A stretch of DNA of 64,000 nucleotides from a virus (taxonomy: Duplodnaviria; Caudoviricetes): positions 91,464-155,463 of the IMG/VR virus record IMGVR_UViG_3300020577_009322; one strand, written 5' to 3'. The translations under genes and the position numbers were made by a program. This document shows, piece after piece, positions 7,200 through 14,414 of the stretch. Below the pieces are notes generated by a model. It did no database searches and had not been told where the DNA came from. It worked only from the letters and a program-made list of their open reading frames with translations. The stretch's first letter is position 1. Each line of letters starts with the position of its first letter.

Positions 7200-8171
7200 A
7201 TGCCTTGTAATACAACACCTTGTGATGATAAATGTTTACCTTATAATCCATGTTATGATGATTGTGGTTGTTTAAACCCAACTACTTTTGAGTGTGTAAC
7301 AAAACCTGGAACATGGCCTGCATTAGGAATTACTAATGATATGAATGGGGTAGAGGCTTTAGAAGCCTTAAATACCGTTATTAATAATTTAACTATAACC
7401 CCGCCATCTCCTGGATCAGACGTTTATGTTAAAGCTACATCTGCAGATACAACTGCAAACTACCTTTCTAGTAAGTTAGTAGTTGGAGCATTTTTAACAA
7501 AAACAATAGTAAATCCGTCAGGAAATGAACAAATTCGTCTGAATGTTTCACCTGCAGCCTTGGTTTCTTCTGATTCTGGAAATATTCTAGATATAGGAAC
7601 TGATGGAAAATTACGTGCTATAGTTACTGTTCCTTTACCTGATATTTCAGTAGTTGGAGGAAGTGGTGTAACTGTTACAGGAACAGGTCCATCATCAGAT
7701 CCTTTTGTTGTATCAATAAATCCATCAATAGAAGTAGTAAGAAATTGCTTTGATAATGTATGGAGAGATGTTACATTAGTTGCTACAGGAAATGCTAATG
7801 TTGTTTATGTTAGTGGAATTCCAAAATATCGTTATCGTTTTGATGGAACAATAGAATTTAAAGGATCAGCAACTTATACTGTAGCTTTTGGAGCATATTC
7901 TACAGGAAATAGAAAATATACAATAACAATTGGGAATATTCCAACAACATGTGTAACATCAGGTGAGCAAGCGGGAGTATCTGACCTGAAGAATATCAAT
8001 TATATAGATGTACCACAAGCTGGTGCAGATCAAATAACGCAACAATATGGGTATATTATTAGAAAATCAACAGCCAATCTAATAGTAGAATTTCAGTCTT
8101 CTTTTACCTCATCAACAAGTAAAACAATTGTTGTTAACTTCGAGGGAGCTATATCATACCCATCTCTTTAA
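7200..8171 (+). CDS. Fibre-like structural protein with Cys-rich N-terminus
   Basis: 323 aa; MPCNTTPCDDKC start; VTGTGxxxDP and SSDSGNILDIGTDGKL fibre-type repeats. Confidence 0.55.
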   Translation: MPCNTTPCDDKCLPYNPCYDDCGCLNPTTFECVTKPGTWPALGITNDMNGVEALEALNTVINNLTITPPSPGSDVYVKATSADTTANYLSSKLVVGAFLTKTIVNPSGNEQIRLNVSPAALVSSDSGNILDIGTDGKLRAIVTVPLPDISVVGGSGVTVTGTGPSSDPFVVSINPSIEVVRNCFDNVWRDVTLVATGNANVVYVSGIPKYRYRFDGTIEFKGSATYTVAFGAYSTGNRKYTITIGNIPTTCVTSGEQAGVSDLKNINYIDVPQAGADQITQQYGYIIRKSTANLIVEFQSSFTSSTSKTIVVNFEGAISYPSL

Positions 8172-8207
8172 AAACTCGTGGTTAGTTGGTTCTCCACAAA
8201 ATGAGTT

Positions 8208-8234
8208 AACGATCCGTTTCTACGGGTCGTTTTT
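8208..8234 (+). terminator. Intrinsic terminator ending the structural operon
   Basis: aacgatccgt-ttct-acgggtcgtt plus T-run. Confidence 0.8.
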
Positions 8235-8247
8235 ACTTTAAAATAAA

Positions 8248-8279
8248 TTTGGTAAATTAAAAATAAAATCGTATATTTG
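8248..8279 (+). promoter_or_regulatory. Bacteroidota-type sigma70 promoter (tRNA block 1)
   Basis: TTTG 8248-8251 and TATATTTG 8272-8279. Confidence 0.8.
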
Positions 8280-8283
8280 CACT

Positions 8284-8361
8284 ATGAAAGCAGTAGAAAA
8301 ATTGTATGGCTGCGGTTGTGGTAAACCAAAACCAGTAGTGGTTAAACCACCTTCAAGATAA
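8284..8361 (+). CDS. 25-aa micro-protein MKAVEKLYGCGCGKPKPVVVKPPSR
   Basis: ATG 4 nt after the -7 element; GCGCGK motif; below ORF-track cutoff. Confidence 0.55.
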   Translation: MKAVEKLYGCGCGKPKPVVVKPPSR

Positions 8362-8372
8362 AAATAAAAACT

Positions 8373-8459
8373 ATGATAACAGTAAATCATGCATGGCCCA
8401 TCTTTACGCAATGTCCAACAGGACAATGTGAGGGACTGTGTACGTGTATTAAGAATTAA
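8373..8459 (+). promoter_or_regulatory. Attenuator leader peptide L1 MITVNHAWPIFTQCPTGQCEGLCTCIKN
   Basis: His/Trp/Pro/Phe/Thr/Gln/Cys codons match downstream tRNAs; followed by terminator. Confidence 0.8.
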
Positions 8460-8479
8460 CTCTTAACCACAACCGAACT

Positions 8480-8507
8480 AACCCCTCCATAAAAAGAGGG
8501 GTTTTTT
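8480..8507 (+). terminator. Attenuator terminator T1
   Basis: aacccctc-cataaaaa-gaggggtt plus T-run, just before tRNA-Pro. Confidence 0.85.
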
Positions 8508-8512
8508 ATTAT

Positions 8513-8587
8513 CTAGATGTTCCACAGTTGGTTATATGGGCTTGCCCTGGAAGCAAGTGTTCGTCAGTTCGAATCTGACCATCTAGA
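8513..8587 (+). tRNA. tRNA-Pro(TGG)
   Basis: ctagatg/catctag acceptor; cttgc-CCTGGAA-gcaag; TTCGAAT T-loop. Confidence 0.85.
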
Positions 8588-8590
8588 CAT

Positions 8591-8662
8591 GCTTTCTTAA
8601 TAGTAATGGTAGCTACTCTGTTTTGTAATCAGAAAGTGTCAGTTCGAGTCTGACAGAAAGCT
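8591..8662 (+). tRNA. tRNA-Thr(TGT)
   Basis: gctttct/agaaagc acceptor; tctgt-TTTGTAA-tcaga. Confidence 0.85.
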
Positions 8663-8670
8663 CTTAACTT

Positions 8671-8742
8671 GGTCCTTTGGGTGAGTGGTTTAACTATTAG
8701 TCTGCAAAACTAATTACAGCAGTTCGAATCTGCTAGGGACCT
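8671..8742 (+). tRNA. tRNA-Cys(GCA)
   Basis: ttagt-CTGCAAA-actaa; U73. Confidence 0.9.
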
Positions 8743-8811
8743 CAAAGGCTTGTCCTTGAAACAACCTTCCCGTGGAGGGAACTGTAAGACAGTTTAAATA
8801 AGAGGATAGCT

Positions 8812-8883
8812 GGAAATATAACTCAGTTGGTAGAGTGCCAGATTGAAGATCTGGTTGCATCAGTTCGATTCTGATTATTTCCA
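8812..8883 (+). tRNA. tRNA-Phe(GAA)
   Basis: ccaga-TTGAAGA-tctgg; canonical cloverleaf. Confidence 0.92.
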
Positions 8884-8888
8884 CATAT

Positions 8889-8960
8889 ACGTGTGTAGTG
8901 TAGTTGGTAACACAGCAGTCTCCAAAACTGTATTCACCTGTTCGAATCGGGTCATACGTG
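8889..8960 (+). tRNA. tRNA-Trp(CCA)
   Basis: gcagt-CTCCAAA-actgt; G73. Confidence 0.9.
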
Positions 8961-8965
8961 CTTAT

Positions 8966-9036
8966 TTTCTTGTAGTGTAATGGTAACACATGAGATTTTG
9001 GCTCTCATATTTTAGGTTCGAGTCCTAACAAGAAAA
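8966..9036 (+). tRNA. tRNA-Gln(TTG)
   Basis: tgaga-TTTTGGC-tctca. Confidence 0.9.
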
Positions 9037-9038
9037 CT

Positions 9039-9111
9039 GGTGATTATAGCATAATGGTAGTGCAAAAGTTTGTGAAGCTTACAGGTGGGAGTTCGAATCT
9101 CCTTAGTCACC
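9039..9111 (+). tRNA. tRNA-His(GTG)
   Basis: G-1:C73; loop TTGTGAA. Confidence 0.88.
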
Positions 9112-9118
9112 CTTATAA

Positions 9119-9194
9119 ACTCCGTTAGCTAAACTGGATACGGCACCAGAATACGAATCTGGAGATTTTGAGGGTTCGAATCCTTCACGGAGTA
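9119..9194 (+). tRNA. tRNA-Arg(ACG)
   Basis: ccaga-ATACGAA-tctgg. Confidence 0.88.
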
Positions 9195-9247
9195 CAATTT
9201 TAAATAATAATTTTCCTAAAATAAAATATATACTATATCTTTGTTCT

Positions 9248-9433
9248 ATGATAGGAAAAATAATAAAATCAGATATGAAATCTAGGATCAGTTATAATAT
9301 AACTGGTTTAGATAAGGGAATATTATTTGTTAATAAAAATACATCATCATTATCTCCAGATGGATATGAAGGAAAATGTCCACAAGGGGAACTATTTAAC
9401 AATAATGGAAATAGTTGGAGATCGAGTTGTTGA
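9248..9433 (+). CDS. Small hypothetical protein
   Basis: 61 aa; TATCTTTG at 9236-9243 just upstream. Confidence 0.35.
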   Translation: MIGKIIKSDMKSRISYNITGLDKGILFVNKNTSSLSPDGYEGKCPQGELFNNNGNSWRSSC

Positions 9434-9489
9434 TAGAGGGAGACTTTCTATAGAAGTAGATGAGAATGGATATGTTACTATAAAATAAA

Positions 9490-9521
9490 TTTGGTAATTG
9501 TTAAAAATAGTTGTATATTTG
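9490..9521 (+). promoter_or_regulatory. Bacteroidota-type promoter (upstream of tRNA block 2)
   Basis: TTTG 9490-9493 and TATATTTG 9514-9521. Confidence 0.8.
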
Positions 9522-9564
9522 TGCTGCACTGACCAAGTAGGCGTGTTACTAAAAATATACAAAC

Positions 9565-9870
9565 ATGAAGAGTACAATTAGAGTGGACTTTCAGGGTCCG
9601 GAGACATCGTCTCAAAATGGTTTTGAACCAGTTATTAGAGTAAATTTAGTAGAAAGTGATGACACACGAGATAAGTTACTAAAGACATTCTTTCAGTCAT
9701 TAGGTGGAGAAAGTTCCTGGCTACATGTAAAACATGTAAAAATTGATCAATCGTGTCATTCTGGATTAATTAATGATAGTATAGTAATTACTCCAGTAAA
9801 AGAGGCTGATATTGAGAACTTGAAGAAAGAGATAGAAGATAGAATAAATGATAAGAGAAATATTTTTTAA
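9565..9870 (+). CDS. Hypothetical protein
   Basis: 101 aa ORF after promoter. Confidence 0.65.
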   Translation: MKSTIRVDFQGPETSSQNGFEPVIRVNLVESDDTRDKLLKTFFQSLGGESSWLHVKHVKIDQSCHSGLINDSIVITPVKEADIENLKKEIEDRINDKRNIF

Positions 9871-9887
9871 ACCTTAAATATAATAAT

Positions 9888-9998
9888 ATGATAATAGGAT
9901 TAATTATTAGTGGAGTAGTGGGTTTCATAGTTGGAGCCTTGGTATTTAGAAATAATGCTAAAAAGGGAGAAGAAATTATTGATAATCTTAAAAAGTAA
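9888..9998 (+). CDS. 36-aa single-pass membrane protein MIIGLIISGVVGFIVGALVFRNNAKKGEEIIDNLKK
   Basis: Hydrophobic helix plus charged tail; A-rich upstream region. Confidence 0.65.
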   Translation: MIIGLIISGVVGFIVGALVFRNNAKKGEEIIDNLKK

Positions 9999-10010
9999 TA
10001 AAGACAACTA

Positions 10011-10079
10011 ATGCAACAATTTTATATGATAGTTAGAAATATTTTAGGGGCGGATGAAAAATCTGGCTCTAGGGAATAA
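10011..10079 (+). promoter_or_regulatory. Attenuator leader peptide L2 MQQFYMIVRNILGADEKSGSRE
   Basis: Codons 6-17 cover all 10 amino acids of block-2 tRNAs; gctctaggg complementary to terminator 5' arm. Confidence 0.85.
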
Positions 10080-10104
10080 TTTTACTATCTTATAATAGAA
10101 AGTT

Positions 10105-10141
10105 AACCCTGGAGCATATTAAGCTTCAGGGTTTTTCTTTT
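10105..10141 (+). terminator. Attenuator terminator T2
   Basis: aaccctggagc-atattaa-gcttcagggtt plus T-run. Confidence 0.88.
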
Positions 10142-10146
10142 AAAAT

Positions 10147-10221
10147 ACCTTCGTAGCAAAATGTGGCTTTGCTCCTGACTTTTAATCAGAACAAAAATGG
10201 GTTCGACTTCCTTCGAAGGTA
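10147..10221 (+). tRNA. tRNA-Lys(TTT), atypical
   Basis: accttcg/cgaaggt acceptor; loop CTTTTAA; mismatches in anticodon and T stems. Confidence 0.75.
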
Positions 10222-10224
10222 CTT

Positions 10225-10299
10225 GGGATCTTAGCAAAAATGATATTTCTTCAGCCTCTTAAGCTGAATAAAAGTAGAGTTCGATTCTCACAGATCCCA
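10225..10299 (+). tRNA. tRNA-Lys(CTT), atypical
   Basis: gggatct/agatccc; tcagc-CTCTTAA-gctga; weak D-arm lacking GG. Confidence 0.7.
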
Positions 10300-10309
10300 C
10301 ATAAGTATA

Positions 10310-10341
10310 TTTGGTGGTTCGAAAATTATTTCGTATATTTG
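10310..10341 (+). promoter_or_regulatory. Bacteroidota-type promoter of the HNH gene
   Basis: TTTG 10310-10313 and TATATTTG 10334-10341; ATG at 10346. Confidence 0.8.
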
Positions 10342-10345
10342 ATAT

Positions 10346-10876
10346 ATGAAAGAAAGAATAGAACAATTAAGAAAAGAAGGAAAAAGTTATAGTGAAATAT
10401 CAAAGATAACTGGATTAGTCAAATCTACAATATCATACTATGTAGGAAATAGAACTGGAAAAGGTAAGCTAACAGCTGAAAAAAGAAATTGTAGAAATTG
10501 TGAAAAAGAAATCAGTTCTCCAAAAGTTTTCTGTGATAAAAAATGTGATTTTGAATATAAACAGAAACTTAGGTTAGATAAATTTGAAAAAAGCAATTTG
10601 TGTACAAATAATTCTATTAGAAAAGCACTTATTTCTATAAATGGAAATAAATGCAGTATTTGTGAAATCTCTGAAATATGGAATGATAGGAAATTAACTA
10701 TGCATGTAGATCATATTGATGGAAATTCTGATAATAATGATAATAAAAATGTTAGATTAGTATGTCCTAATTGTCATTCTCAACTAGAAACATCTAAAAA
10801 TAAAGTTAAAAAACAAACAAAAAGAAATAAATACTTAAGAAAATACAAAGGTTATATAGATGCCCCTGTCGTATAG
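10346..10876 (+). CDS. Free-standing HNH homing endonuclease with N-terminal HTH and Zn-finger
   Basis: CxxC pairs; HVDHIDGNSDNNDNKNVRLVCPNCHS. Confidence 0.9.
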   Translation: MKERIEQLRKEGKSYSEISKITGLVKSTISYYVGNRTGKGKLTAEKRNCRNCEKEISSPKVFCDKKCDFEYKQKLRLDKFEKSNLCTNNSIRKALISINGNKCSICEISEIWNDRKLTMHVDHIDGNSDNNDNKNVRLVCPNCHSQLETSKNKVKKQTKRNKYLRKYKGYIDAPVV

Positions 10877-10934
10877 TGATTTAATATCTCTCTCTTACAA
10901 AGAGAAGACGGCAGTTTGATTCTGCACAGGGGTA
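10862..10934 (+). tRNA. tRNA-Val(TAC)
   Basis: tctct-CTTACAA-agaga; T-loop TTTGATT. Confidence 0.8.
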
Positions 10935-10939
10935 CAAAT

Positions 10940-11011
10940 GGTTCTATAGTGTAATGATTAGCACAACTCTCTTCTAAAGAGTTAGTATAAGTTTGACCCT
11001 TGTTAGGACTA
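10940..11011 (+). tRNA. tRNA-Arg(TCT)
   Basis: actct-CTTCTAA-agagt. Confidence 0.8.
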
Positions 11012-11051
11012 CAGATGAGTTACCCTTCTCCGTGTATTAAAAAGGGATAAT

Positions 11052-11126
11052 GTCTGAATAGCTGAGTTGGTTTCAAGCACTTGACTGTTAATCAAGAGTA
11101 GTTGGGTTCGATCCCCAAATCAGACG
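11052..11126 (+). tRNA. tRNA-Asn(GTT)
   Basis: cttga-CTGTTAA-tcaag; G73. Confidence 0.9.
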
Positions 11127-11132
11127 CTTTAT

Positions 11133-11203
11133 TGTGCGGTGGTGTAATGGTAGCATATTGGGCTCATAACCCAATGATGAAAGTTCGACTCTTTCCTGCG
11201 CAA
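11133..11203 (+). tRNA. tRNA-Met(CAT), initiator-like
   Basis: ttggg-CTCATAA-cccaa with three consecutive G-C pairs. Confidence 0.85.
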
Positions 11204-11206
11204 CTT

Positions 11207-11422
11207 ATGAAAAATTACATAGAAGATCAAATTAGAAAAGGTTACAGGGTATACGACCTTAAAGAAATACTCGGAGAAACACCAATGCAATCAGATATAG
11301 ATAATTTGATTGAAAAATTAGGTCCTAATAAGTTAGGTGAAGTTGATGAAAATGGTTATCTTTACGTGAAAACAGATCAATCGTGGAGAAATATTTTAGG
11401 ACAGCGGATGGAGAAATGGTGA
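11207..11422 (+). CDS. Hypothetical protein (71 aa)
   Basis: Start reassigned to ATG 11207 because the track's 11102 start lies inside tRNA genes. Confidence 0.55.
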   Translation: MKNYIEDQIRKGYRVYDLKEILGETPMQSDIDNLIEKLGPNKLGEVDENGYLYVKTDQSWRNILGQRMEKW

Positions 11423-11856
11423 ATATAATCTCTCACTGTAGAGAAATATTAGCAAAAGAACCAGATGCTAAGATATTAATTGGAACTGACTCACAGGATG
11501 AGGATGGAAAAAGTAAGTATTGTACTGTAATAGTATTTAGATATGGATTACGTGGTGCTCACTTTATCTACAGTAAGGATGATAGGAAAAAGATAAGAGA
11601 TATTTTCACTCGTTTATTTACTGAGTGTGAGTACTCACTAGAAATTGCTGAGCATATAACTAAGAATACTAGTTATAAAGTATCAACAATAGAGTTAGAT
11701 TTCAATGATTTCAAGAAGACAAAATCAACACCTTTAATATCAGCAACAAAGGGATGGTGTGAATCTTTAGGTTACTCAGCTACTCTAAAAAGTGGTGAAA
11801 TGTTTGCTTGTAAAGCAGCAGATCATATCCTAAGACATCCATCATTATATAAATAA
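11383..11856 (+). CDS. RNase H-like YkuK/DUF458 family protein
   Basis: ILIGTDSQ...IELDFN...KAADH acidic motif layout. Confidence 0.8.
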   Translation: MEKYFRTADGEMVNIISHCREILAKEPDAKILIGTDSQDEDGKSKYCTVIVFRYGLRGAHFIYSKDDRKKIRDIFTRLFTECEYSLEIAEHITKNTSYKVSTIELDFNDFKKTKSTPLISATKGWCESLGYSATLKSGEMFACKAADHILRHPSLYK

Positions 11857-11884
11857 TACTTTCAAACAAAAATAAATTTAGTAA

Positions 11885-11958
11885 GCAGTATACGCATAAA
11901 TGGTGGTGCACCAGTCTTCCAAATTGGAATAGAGTCAGTTCGATCCTGACATGCTGCA
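11885..11958 (+). tRNA. tRNA-Gly(TCC)
   Basis: ccagt-CTTCCAA-attgg. Confidence 0.85.
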
Positions 11959-12020
11959 CCCTTAAGAGAGATTAAATAAAGTCTGCAGCTTTTGGCCAAT
12001 ATTGGTTCTCTCTTTTGCAG

Positions 12021-12092
12021 GGCCCTTTCGTCTAATGTGTAGGACGACGCTCTTTCCAAGCGTAGATTTCGGTTCGAATCCGTGAGGGGCTA
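12021..12092 (+). tRNA. tRNA-Glu(TTC)
   Basis: Glu-type D arm gtct...ggac; acgct-CTTTCCA-agcgt. Confidence 0.78.
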
Positions 12093-12098
12093 CAATAA

Positions 12099-12172
12099 GG
12101 TCTATGGATGTGGCAGGGTGTGGCTACTGGATTGTCAATCCAGGGAGACGGGTTCGATCCCCGTATAGACCG
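12099..12172 (+). tRNA. tRNA-Asp(GTC)
   Basis: ctgga-TTGTCAA-tccag; G73; atypical D arm. Confidence 0.8.
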
Positions 12173-12229
12173 CAACGAGGAACATGGTAATTCATGTCTG
12201 AGGCTGAAAGAAGCAATCCCCTCGTCTAT

Positions 12230-12302
12230 GCTTCTATAGCTCAATGGTCAGAGCAGGACGCTTATATCGTCAAGGTTTCCAGTTCGAGTCTGGATAGAAG
12301 TA
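12230..12302 (+). tRNA. tRNA-Ile(TAT)
   Basis: Loop CTTATAT; canonical D and T arms. Confidence 0.85.
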
Positions 12303-12307
12303 CATAT

Positions 12308-12380
12308 TGGAGTGTAGCTCAAATGGTAGAGCGCCTGCCTGATACGCAGGAGGTACAGGGATCGTTACCCTGCATTCCAA
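12308..12380 (+). tRNA. tRNA-Ile(GAT)
   Basis: cctgc-CTGATAC-gcagg; T-loop ATCGTTA atypical. Confidence 0.85.
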
Positions 12381-12507
12381 CGGAGTGTTACGCATAGCCT
12401 CTCAACGATGTAGCGTTTCTCCTCGGTAGCCCGTCGACGTAATCCGAGACAGTTCATTACCTAATAAGAATGAGTTAGGGAGATATGGGAAACCTGCTCC
12501 CGATTTT

Positions 12508-12580
12508 GGGGATAAAGCTCTAGTGGATGAGCATCTGCCTTGCACGCAGAAGGTTAGGAATTCGAGTTTCCTTATCTCCA
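12508..12580 (+). tRNA. tRNA-Ala(TGC)
   Basis: G3:U70 pair; tctgc-CTTGCAC-gcaga. Confidence 0.92.
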
Positions 12581-12588
12581 CAAATAAA

Positions 12589-12620
12589 TTTGGTAAATAT
12601 AAATATTTGTAGTATTATAT
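12589..12620 (+). promoter_or_regulatory. Possible promoter for tRNA block 3
   Basis: aaataaaTTTGgtaaat matches the 8241-8257 context, but the -7 element is degenerate (tattatat). Confidence 0.45.
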
Positions 12621-12626
12621 AATATA

Positions 12627-12698
12627 ATGAAGAAACTATATACATATTATTCGTTAAGTCTCTTGTCCTTAAATGGACTAGCTAGGAATACTATGTGA
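12627..12698 (+). promoter_or_regulatory. Attenuator leader peptide L3 MKKLYTYYSLSLLSLNGLARNTM
   Basis: 11 of codons 4-15 are Leu/Ser/Tyr; downstream tRNAs are Leu, Leu, Ser, Ser, Tyr. Confidence 0.88.
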
Positions 12699-12729
12699 TA
12701 ACAGTGGGCAATCGTTAGATCATTCGTGT

Positions 12730-12760
12730 AAATCCTGGCTTTAATTAGTCAGGATTTTTT
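12730..12760 (+). terminator. Attenuator terminator T3
   Basis: aaatcctggct-ttaatt-agtcaggattt plus T-run, 4 nt before tRNA-Leu. Confidence 0.88.
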
Positions 12761-12764
12761 ATTT

Positions 12765-12838
12765 GTGGGTATGGCGGAATTGGAATACGCAACAGGTTTA
12801 GACCCTGAAATTTAAGAGTTCGAGTCTCTTTACCCATA
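12765..12838 (+). tRNA. tRNA-Leu(TAG), short variable arm
   Basis: Leu-type D loop gaattggaata; loop TTTAGAC; A73. Confidence 0.85.
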
Positions 12839-12844
12839 CTATAT

Positions 12845-12918
12845 GTCCTTGTGATGGAATTGGAATACATGTCAGACTTAAAATCTGAATTTTACGGGTT
12901 CGAGTCCCGTCTTGGACA
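12845..12918 (+). tRNA. tRNA-Leu(TAA), short variable arm
   Basis: tcaga-CTTAAAA-tctga; two T-T mismatches in acceptor stem. Confidence 0.8.
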
Positions 12919-12923
12919 CATAA

Positions 12924-13006
12924 GGAAGAGCGCATTGTGAGAGCTTATCCGTCCTGAAAACGGTGAAGGTGTAATAGCTGTGAGAGTTCGATTCTCTCCT
13001 CTTCCG
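12924..13006 (+). tRNA. tRNA-Ser(TGA)
   Basis: Loop CCTGAAA; long variable arm; G73; degenerate D arm. Confidence 0.75.
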
Positions 13007-13011
13007 CTTAT

Positions 13012-13094
13012 AGAGAAATGACAGAGTGGTAATGTAGCAGTTTGCTAAACTGTAGATGGTAACACATCCGTGAGTTCGATCCTCACTTTCTCTG
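13012..13094 (+). tRNA. tRNA-Ser(GCT)
   Basis: gcagt-TTGCTAA-actgt; long variable arm; G73. Confidence 0.9.
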
Positions 13095-13099
13095 CAGAT

Positions 13100-13183
13100 G
13101 GGTATGATGGTAAATGTGGTTAAATCAGGAGACTGTAAATCTCTCGTCATTAGACTGTTGGAGTTCGATTCTGTACATACCCA
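13100..13183 (+). tRNA. tRNA-Tyr(GTA)
   Basis: ggaga-CTGTAAA-tctct; long variable arm. Confidence 0.85.
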
Positions 13184-13200
13184 CAATTATTTTTTTATTT

Positions 13201-13243
13201 AAATGGAGTCTTGTACCTTTGTTGGGCTAAGACTCCATTTTTT
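13201..13243 (+). terminator. Terminator closing the tRNA cluster
   Basis: aaatggagtctt...aagactccattt plus T-run. Confidence 0.75.
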
Positions 13244-13359
13244 GTTCAGGCAGGAGGATACACTATGAAAATAGTGCTACTACGTCTAAGGATGCTTATG
13301 TCCCCTAAGTAGATTGGGAGGGGGCTGGGGGGTGGGTCAGAAAATAAATTAAAAATAAA

Positions 13360-13391
13360 TTTCGCTATATCAAATATTCATTGTAACTTTG
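13360..13391 (+). promoter_or_regulatory. Bacteroidota-type promoter
   Basis: TAACTTTG 13384-13391, with tttcg 24 nt upstream. Confidence 0.6.
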
Positions 13392-13411
13392 TGGAAACAA
13401 AACAGAAAAAT

Positions 13412-13573
13412 ATGACAAAGAAAATTACAGAACACTTGAAAAGAAACAACAGTTATTTTAAATGGTCAGCTAAAAGATTAGCAGATAAGTTTGGTTGTTC
13501 AGAAAGAACTATCACAAATATTATCAAGACTCTTGCACCAGTTAAGAGAACTTATTTAAATAACTTAAAGTAA
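13412..13573 (+). CDS. Small HTH DNA-binding protein
   Basis: SAKRLADKFGCSERTITNII helix-turn-helix; ATG 13412 preferred over GTG 13391. Confidence 0.7.
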   Translation: MTKKITEHLKRNNSYFKWSAKRLADKFGCSERTITNIIKTLAPVKRTYLNNLK

Positions 13574-13577
13574 GAGA

Positions 13578-14414
13578 ATGTTTAAGAAGGAAATAGAAGC
13601 TTTTTTACTAGAAAAAAGAGGATACTTGAAGAAGTCACCTTTACATGTGGCTAAAGCTATATGGAAATCTTCAATAAAACACAGTAAACCAAAGACTCAA
13701 GCAGATGTAGAGAAAGAATTAGAGGTAATCAAGGATGTTCAGGCCACAATGAGACTAGTAACTGTCCATCCACAGGATTCTGCAGATAACAGTATTTTGG
13801 AAGCTTACGAAAAGATAGTAGCTGAGAAAAATCGTCCAAGAAAAAAGTTATTCTTTGATCTAGAAGTATCAGCTAATATCGTATTCTCTTGGAGAATTGG
13901 TAAGGATGTAGATCTATCACCAGATAGTATTATTCAGGAACGAGCTATTATATGTGCTTGTTATAAGTGGGAAGGAGATGATAGAGTTTATTCTCTAAAG
14001 TGGAATAAAGGTGATGATAAAGATTTATTAGAAAAATTCTCAAAAATTATAGATTCAGCAGATGAGGTAGTTACCCAAAATGGGGATGCATTTGATATTA
14101 AGTGGTTAAGAACACGCTGTATCTATCATGGAATTCCAGTATCACCAAAGTTCAATTCAATTGATACTTTAAAAATGGCCAGAAGTGGGTTTAAATTTAA
14201 CTCCAATAAATTAGATTATATGGGAAAGTTTCTGTCACTTGGACAGAAAATAAAGACAGAATATAATTTATGGAAGGATATTACCTTAAATAACAGTAAG
14301 GTGGCTATGGATAAGATGGTTGAGTATTGCAAACAAGATGTTACACTGTTAGAACAGGTATATCAAAAATTACAGGCTTTCTCACCAGTTAAGAAGTTCA
14401 AATACAAACTGTAA
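13578..14414 (+). CDS. DnaQ/RNase H-like 3'-5' exonuclease
   Basis: Exo I FFDLE, Exo II QNGDAFD, Exo III YCKQD. Confidence 0.88.
   Translation: MFKKEIEAFLLEKRGYLKKSPLHVAKAIWKSSIKHSKPKTQADVEKELEVIKDVQATMRLVTVHPQDSADNSILEAYEKIVAEKNRPRKKLFFDLEVSANIVFSWRIGKDVDLSPDSIIQERAIICACYKWEGDDRVYSLKWNKGDDKDLLEKFSKIIDSADEVVTQNGDAFDIKWLRTRCIYHGIPVSPKFNSIDTLKMARSGFKFNSNKLDYMGKFLSLGQKIKTEYNLWKDITLNNSKVAMDKMVEYCKQDVTLLEQVYQKLQAFSPVKKFKYKL

Follow-up and report, generated by a model that had tools for sequence, protein, structure and literature searches.

A codon-listing leader ahead of a phage tRNA block as a likely ribosome-mediated transcription attenuator

The 64,000-nucleotide stretch analysed here (the window) is the right-hand 64 kb of virus record IMGVR_UViG_3300020577_009322, a complete genome of 155,463 bp with direct terminal repeats and a G+C content of 31.6%. 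Its 24 tRNA genes lie on the + strand in three blocks, and the second block is preceded by a short open reading frame (ORF) and an intrinsic terminator that we call unit 2. We consider it likely that unit 2 is a leader-peptide (ribosome-mediated) transcription attenuator of the trp/his type that gates the block behind it. Judging from the sequence, the phage probably makes these tRNAs only when ribosomes slow on the codons listed in the leader. Four features of an attenuator are present, namely a short upstream ORF, codons that match the regulated genes, an intrinsic terminator, and an antiterminator that shares an arm with it. The elements of the unit and its surroundings are as follows.

9490-9521, + strand: Bacteroidota-type promoter (TTTG, ~20 nt, TAnnTTTG; pattern match), the nearest upstream of the unit-2 leader
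10011-10079, + strand: unit-2 leader ORF, 22 codons long if started at the upstream ATG and 17 if started at 10026, with TAA at 10077-10079
10026-10061, + strand: sensor run of 12 codons, with all ten block-2 amino acids and one Leu codon
10042-10065, + strand: region 1; 10042-10049 pairs with 10067-10074 and encloses a small hairpin, 10051-10055/10061-10065, in the full-length minimum free energy (MFE) structure
10066-10074, + strand: antiterminator 5' arm (region 2), within the last leader codons
10077-10105, + strand: inner hairpin stacked on the antiterminator helix, including the stop codon
10105-10133, + strand: intrinsic terminator, 11-bp stem and 7-nt loop, dG -17.2
10105-10115, + strand: terminator 5' arm (region 3), common to the antiterminator
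10134-10142, + strand: terminator T-run
10147-12581, + strand: block 2, 12 tRNAs for ten amino acids with protein genes interspersed (ARAGORN)
10310-10341, + strand: internal promoter-like site (pattern match), ahead of an HNH endonuclease gene at 10346-10876

The sensor run is located 121 nt upstream of block 2. Its first codon is the ATG at 10026 and its last is AAA (10059-10061), with five further codons before the stop. Eleven of its 12 codons specify block-2 amino acids, the exception being TTA (Leu), and ten can be read by a block-2 tRNA under standard wobble, with GTT requiring a U34:U reading. The first-pass annotation, made from the letters alone, had described a 12-codon run that samples all ten amino acids of the block with 11 cognate codons, down to the isoacceptor. 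The complete set is indeed there, and the count of 11 holds by amino acid. The isoacceptor claim stands in that both Ile codons, ATA and ATT, occur and Arg is encoded by AGA; it fails for tRNA-Lys(ctt), whose codon AAG is not sampled. The six reading frames of the 155-kb genome hold 145,153 windows of 12 codons without a stop, and all ten amino acids are found together in only 2 of them, one of which is the unit-2 run; the multinomial probability of the complete set is 3.1e-5 per window. Overall amino-acid enrichment of the unit-2 leader is not significant because its ten amino acids account for 59% of proteome residues, and the unit was judged by coverage and run statistics instead of overall composition. 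This lack of overall enrichment and the internal promoter-like site at 10310-10341 would both fit a chance ORF beside an ordinary operon terminator, with the tRNAs produced by leaky read-through or from internal promoters. Such an ORF would, however, rarely show complete coverage, and the comparative data presented below bear on it further.

In the alternative helix, the 5' arm GCTCTAGGG (10066-10074) pairs at nine of nine positions, one of them G:U, with CCCTGGAGC (10107-10115), just as had been proposed from the sequence, and the inner helix said to extend this pairing corresponds to the hairpin at 10077-10105. Together the antiterminator helix and this hairpin total -22.7 kcal/mol, compared with -17.2 kcal/mol for the competing terminator. 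The arm duplex alone reaches -16.7 kcal/mol versus -8.3 +/- 1.9 in 300 dinucleotide shuffles of the leader (z -4.4), and in 17 of 23 units its p value against shuffles is 0.013 or lower. In a plain MAFFT alignment of nine unit-2 leaders that was fitted to no structure, 88% of the cells in the antiterminator helix pair and 7 of the 13 pairs show substitutions in both partners; no shuffle out of 500 attained the observed level, and slid controls gave at most 61% pairing. RNAalifold yields the same helix unprompted. These properties also bear on the view that an antitermination factor, from the phage or from the host, overrides the terminators to time expression, with the small ORFs as bystanders or micro-proteins. 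Phages commonly use antitermination for temporal control, and one relative carries a tRNA behind a terminator that has no leader, yet the competing arm is part of the ORF, and its changes are matched by changes in the terminator. We regard this explanation as very unlikely.

According to the attenuation model, a polymerase from the promoter at 9490-9521 would transcribe the leader while a ribosome translates it. Quick decoding of all the sensor codons would bring the ribosome to the end of the ORF, where it would cover 10066-10074; the terminator at 10105-10133 could then form, and transcription would halt 13 nt before tRNA-Lys. When a cognate charged tRNA is scarce, the ribosome would instead stall in the sensor run, leaving 10066-10074 free to pair with 10107-10115, so that the terminator would be blocked and the polymerase would continue into the tRNA genes. 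Since the products are the very tRNAs being sensed, the circuit would act by negative feedback, adjusting the supply of tRNA to what decoding requires. We infer from this architecture that the leader is translated, that ribosomes stall on it, that their progress is coupled to the polymerase and that a physiological signal acts through them. The natural signal could be a codon-usage mismatch, the loss or cleavage of host tRNAs, or starvation. The predicted folds agree with the placement of the sensor run. A stall scan simulated ribosome positions by deleting the occupied RNA, taken to extend from the A-site codon to a point 9, 11 or 13 nt downstream, and by folding the rest as it exists before the terminator 3' arm emerges. 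The antiterminator forms with the ribosome on any codon up to and including the final one of the sensor run, and for no position past that point; the seven unit-2 leaders scanned all have this boundary where their sensor run ends.

Unit 2 has two sister units in the window.

8373-8503, + strand: sister unit 1, with leader ORF 8373-8459 and terminator 8480-8503, before the Pro, Thr, Cys, Phe, Trp, Gln, His and Arg(acg) tRNAs
12627-12757, + strand: sister unit 3, with leader ORF 12627-12698 and terminator 12730-12757, before the Leu, Leu, Ser and Tyr tRNAs

All three are alike in layout, with a leader, 20-30 nt, a terminator and then a tRNA, and the terminator lies 20-30 nt past the leader stop in 23 of 23 units examined in relatives. 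From the terminator to the first tRNA these 23 units have either 6-13 nt or, with an inserted ORF, about 510-570 nt. In the window, each block starts 7-13 nt after an intrinsic terminator that is itself 3' of a short ORF, leaving no space for a promoter in between. The same applies to block 2 in particular: its terminator ends 13 nt before tRNA-Lys, which starts at 10147, so near the T-run that a promoter has no space. The unit-1 leader is enriched in the amino-acid set of block 1 and the unit-3 leader in Leu, Ser and Tyr, and neither is enriched in the other sets. Binomial p values for this own-block enrichment range from 1e-4 to 1e-6 for unit-1 leaders and from 2e-4 to 9e-3 for unit-3 leaders.

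The strongest evidence for attenuation is the way in which the leaders co-vary with tRNA content across relatives. These are metagenomic sequences recovered with two conserved neighbouring proteins as queries, in which they share 33-68% identity with the window. Alignment of the leader in related phages had been suggested by the first-pass annotation as a check, and every relative with a tRNA cluster proved also to carry the three units, including leader ORF, terminator and antiterminator; the tRNA-less relative L010 has no leader-terminator module. A homologous unit-2 leader frame is open in 12 other loci (L001, L005-L009, L015, L018, L029-L031 and L053). Although these leaders are homologous, the order of their residues differs, and the replacements are chemically non-conservative but stay within the amino-acid set of the block. 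Sensor runs of 11-15 codons hold the whole set in L001, L005, L006/L007/L015, L008, L018, L029 and L031. This recurrence of complete coverage with differing residue order in every relative, along with the missing module in L010, makes the chance-ORF explanation already unlikely, and we give it hardly any credence.

Changes in the array are mirrored in the leaders. In L009, block 2 lacks tRNA-Arg(tct) even under relaxed ARAGORN thresholds, and the sensor run has no Arg. In L030 and L053, tRNA-Cys has been relocated into block 2 and a Cys codon is found in the unit-2 sensor run; their Pro-block leaders have no Cys in the sensor run, while such leaders elsewhere have at least four Cys codons. L003 and L004 have only tRNA-Cys behind a homologous leader, which is Cys-rich and devoid of His, Trp and Phe. 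The match extends to codon families: Arg is encoded by AGA in unit-2 leaders, in keeping with Arg-tct, and by CGC, CGT or CGA in unit-1 leaders, in keeping with Arg-acg, and CGN codons make up only 24% of the Arg codons of the genome. Over 32 distinct units, with the sensor taken as the leader portion before the arm, sensors hold 215 of the 223 classes present in their block versus 133 of 449 absent classes (odds ratio 64). Likewise, of 573 sensor codons, 395 fit the block behind their own leader, as against 190 +/- 26 when blocks are permuted (p <= 2e-4). An antitermination factor accounts neither for leader composition that tracks tRNA content nor for non-conservative replacements confined to the set of the block. 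The same data address another possibility, that a genuine switch responds solely to the leader being translated at all, as a gauge of general capacity or of transcription-translation coupling, with codon identity being irrelevant. The terminator and antiterminator geometry would work with any codons, and the presence of mostly a single codon per amino acid would give a weak signal for each. This idea nevertheless leaves unexplained why three leaders each use the set of their own block, why the set follows the gain and loss of tRNAs, and why Arg codon families differ by unit; we judge it improbable. Conservation, compensatory changes, the RNAalifold result and a leader set that follows tRNA content thus all support the attenuator interpretation originally put forward.

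In a separate observation on the sensor runs, rare G-ending codons recur both in the window (10047-10052) and in the unit-2 leaders of relatives. GCG, GTG and GGG represent 3%, 6% and 7% of their codon families in the genome and are read by the U34 tRNAs of the phage by wobble only. They may tune sensitivity, or they may serve RNA structure.

Several observations weigh against attenuation as we describe it, the first group of which concerns the folding predictions. With the terminator 3' arm in the fold, the MFE structure is still the terminator when the ribosome stalls on AAA, and also when it stalls on GAA if 13 nt downstream are covered. Lys, the amino acid of the first two tRNAs in the block, is thus predicted to be the weakest sensor. 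The first-pass annotation had warned that a ribosome stalled at the Glu or Lys codon may still mask the antiterminator, a caution that is fair for Lys and less so for Glu, which is borderline. In many relatives, moreover, the antiterminator is predicted even without a ribosome. The 1:2 hairpin (10042-10049/10067-10074) is part of the full-length MFE structure in the window and is not consistently predicted in relatives; on this modelling, region 1 is tentatively a possible anti-antiterminator or pause hairpin. A second group concerns the leader itself. One sensor codon, TTA, belongs to block 3, and the start codon is ambiguous, with in-frame ATGs at 10011 and, five codons further 3', at 10026. 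The ATG at 10011 is conserved in all relatives, and the second is missing in L001 and L005, where Met occupies another position of the run. The start codon is therefore probably the one at 10011, in which case the ATG at 10026 would be an internal Met codon open to sensing.

The remaining difficulties come from the genomic context. Transcription from the promoter-like site at 10310-10341 can supply the Val to Ala tRNAs without the switch, so that in this genome only Lys-ttt and Lys-ctt would rely solely on the switch, and L005, L007 and L018 have a similar site after tRNA-Met. In L006, the Val, Arg-tct and Asn tRNAs have been lost and their codons have been kept. At 16882-16990 in L009, a lone tRNA-Arg(tct) follows an ordinary 54-codon gene, 7 nt behind the terminator of that gene, with no leader and no intervening promoter, and the adjacency of terminator and tRNA is therefore by itself not proof of attenuation. 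Finally, the units share ancestry, and the p values given above for the 32 units accordingly overstate their independence.

The array into which these units are set covers all 20 amino acids (ARAGORN) and has the following composition.

8513-9195, + strand: block 1, tRNAs for Pro, Thr, Cys, Phe, Trp, Gln, His and Arg-acg
10147-10300, + strand: tRNA-Lys(ttt) and tRNA-Lys(ctt), at the start of block 2 (ARAGORN)
10862-11204, + strand: tRNA-Val(tac), Arg(tct), Asn(gtt) and Met(cat) (ARAGORN)
11207-11856, + strand: two ORFs within block 2, the second (11383-11856) encoding a PF04308 RNaseH-like protein
11885-12581, + strand: tRNA-Gly(tcc), Glu(ttc), Asp(gtc), Ile(tat), Ile(gat) and Ala(tgc), at the end of block 2 (ARAGORN)
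12765-13184, + strand: block 3, tRNAs for Leu (two), Ser and Tyr

By pattern matching, the promoters of the genome fit the Bacteroidota type, and the phage exonuclease gene has its closest counterparts in Flavobacterium phages. A near-identity search against cultured phages returned stray tRNA matches only, and tblastn with the upstream structural protein found no match among cultured phages. On the same pattern-based assignment, the promoter at 9490-9521 serves ORFs 9565-9870 and 9888-9998 and then the unit-2 leader, which in the window has no dedicated promoter directly ahead of it; relatives carry the motif immediately before the homologous leaders. The HNH homing-endonuclease gene is an insertion that separates tRNA-Lys(ctt) from tRNA-Val and overlaps the beginning of tRNA-Val with its 3' end. 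Similar inserted ORFs are found elsewhere in the arrays of relatives, such as that at 11453-12016 in L001 between the unit-1 terminator and tRNA-Pro. The RNaseH-like product of 11383-11856 (PF04308, E 6e-19) is conserved inside tRNA arrays and may have a role in tRNA processing. A single-sequence search with this ORF gave no matches and a homologue alignment was required, which recovered 45 viral contigs, many of them with tRNA clusters.

Block 3 comprises exactly the class II tRNA types, those with a long variable arm (Leu, Ser and Tyr), so that the order of the array apparently reflects tRNA type in addition to control unit. Within it, 12924-13005 gives a weak tRNA-like match (Rfam tRNA-Sec model, 24.8 bits) at the position of tRNA-Ser(tga) in relatives; it was missed by ARAGORN, and its anticodon loop reads TGA by eye. 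This segment is probably a divergent tRNA-Ser, which would account for the TCG and TCC codons of the unit-3 leader. Unassigned spacers of 56-126 nt interrupt the array at 8744-8811, 11961-12020, 12174-12229 and 12382-12507, and the place of the 60-nt gap that separates Gly(tcc) from Glu in the window is taken in relatives by a tRNA-Gly(gcc). In L031, an array tRNA at about 9056 has the anticodon CTA according to ARAGORN (amber-reading, labelled Pyl).

A conserved micro-ORF with the core G-C-G-C-G-K-P-K-P lies directly after the first promoter, at 8284-8361 in the window and at these positions in relatives.

L001, 11095-11139: micro-ORF
L003, 11501-11599: micro-ORF, downstream of tRNA-Cys
L004, 11496-11587: micro-ORF, downstream of tRNA-Cys
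L010, ~11071-11135: micro-ORF
L029, 3477-3617: micro-ORF, fused in frame to the unit-1 leader

Its persistence in the tRNA-less L010 ruled it out as a part of the switch.

A similar arrangement is found in Caulobacter phage phiCbK (L027 2541-2792; 49541-49792 of the record), in which a 45-codon ORF is followed by a strong terminator and then by tRNAs for Pro, Pro, Lys, Lys, Leu (three), Ala and Ser (two). Thirty-one of the 44 residues of this leader belong to the Pro, Lys, Leu, Ala and Ser set (p 2e-6), which suggests at the sequence level that the design recurs in an unrelated phage lineage. A literature search turned up no account of attenuators that act on tRNA genes, whether of phages or of cells, and, among the papers searched, likewise no match for Bacteroidetes attenuators. 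The broader proposition, that unrelated phage lineages run their tRNA genes as closed-loop, on-demand homeostats in which each block is transcribed only upon slow decoding, strikes us as evenly balanced between true and false. If it is correct, phages would compensate automatically for codon-usage mismatch, for shut-off of host tRNAs, or for tRNA cleavage by anticodon-nuclease defences, and the conflict between phage and host over translation would have a general, so far undescribed layer. Why phages carry tRNA genes and how these genes are controlled are open questions that a codon-listing leader would address. With tRNA supply measured at the ribosome and corrected by feedback, classical attenuation would extend from amino-acid metabolism to the decoding machinery. 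The leader also offers a simple sequence signature for finding further cases and a compact natural part for reporting the availability of chosen tRNAs.

Among known systems, T-box riboswitches resemble unit 2 in sensing tRNA status and in placing a terminator/antiterminator switch before translation-related genes, but they bind uncharged tRNA directly and require no ORF. A T-box or other known riboswitch was ruled out in that an Rfam search of 7500-14000 at E <= 1 gave tRNAs only. The Bacteroid-trp leader (RF01692 in Rfam 15), which we take to be a leader-peptide attenuator in the likely host phylum, differs in preceding Trp biosynthesis genes; its model had no match anywhere in the phage genome and gave the control match in Bacteroides thetaiotaomicron. 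The pheST attenuator of E. coli, with its pheM leader, is also a case of leader-peptide control over a component of the translation apparatus for the amino acid that is sensed, except that it controls an aminoacyl-tRNA synthetase and senses a single amino acid, whereas unit 2 controls tRNA genes. Leader-peptide attenuators of amino-acid biosynthetic operons in E. coli and Salmonella include trpL, hisL, leuL and pheL as well as the multivalent thrL and ilvL. Unit 2 shares with them a short leader that carries regulatory codons, an intrinsic terminator, and an antiterminator that overlaps this terminator and is predicted to be gated by ribosome position, and, with the ilv and thr leaders, the sampling of several amino acids. 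It differs from them in its location in a phage, in a 1:2 hairpin that is not conserved, and in presenting a checklist of ten amino acids, mostly with one codon each, in place of runs of one or a few. Above all, the genes under its putative control encode tRNAs and not enzymes, such that the product itself would relieve the stall.

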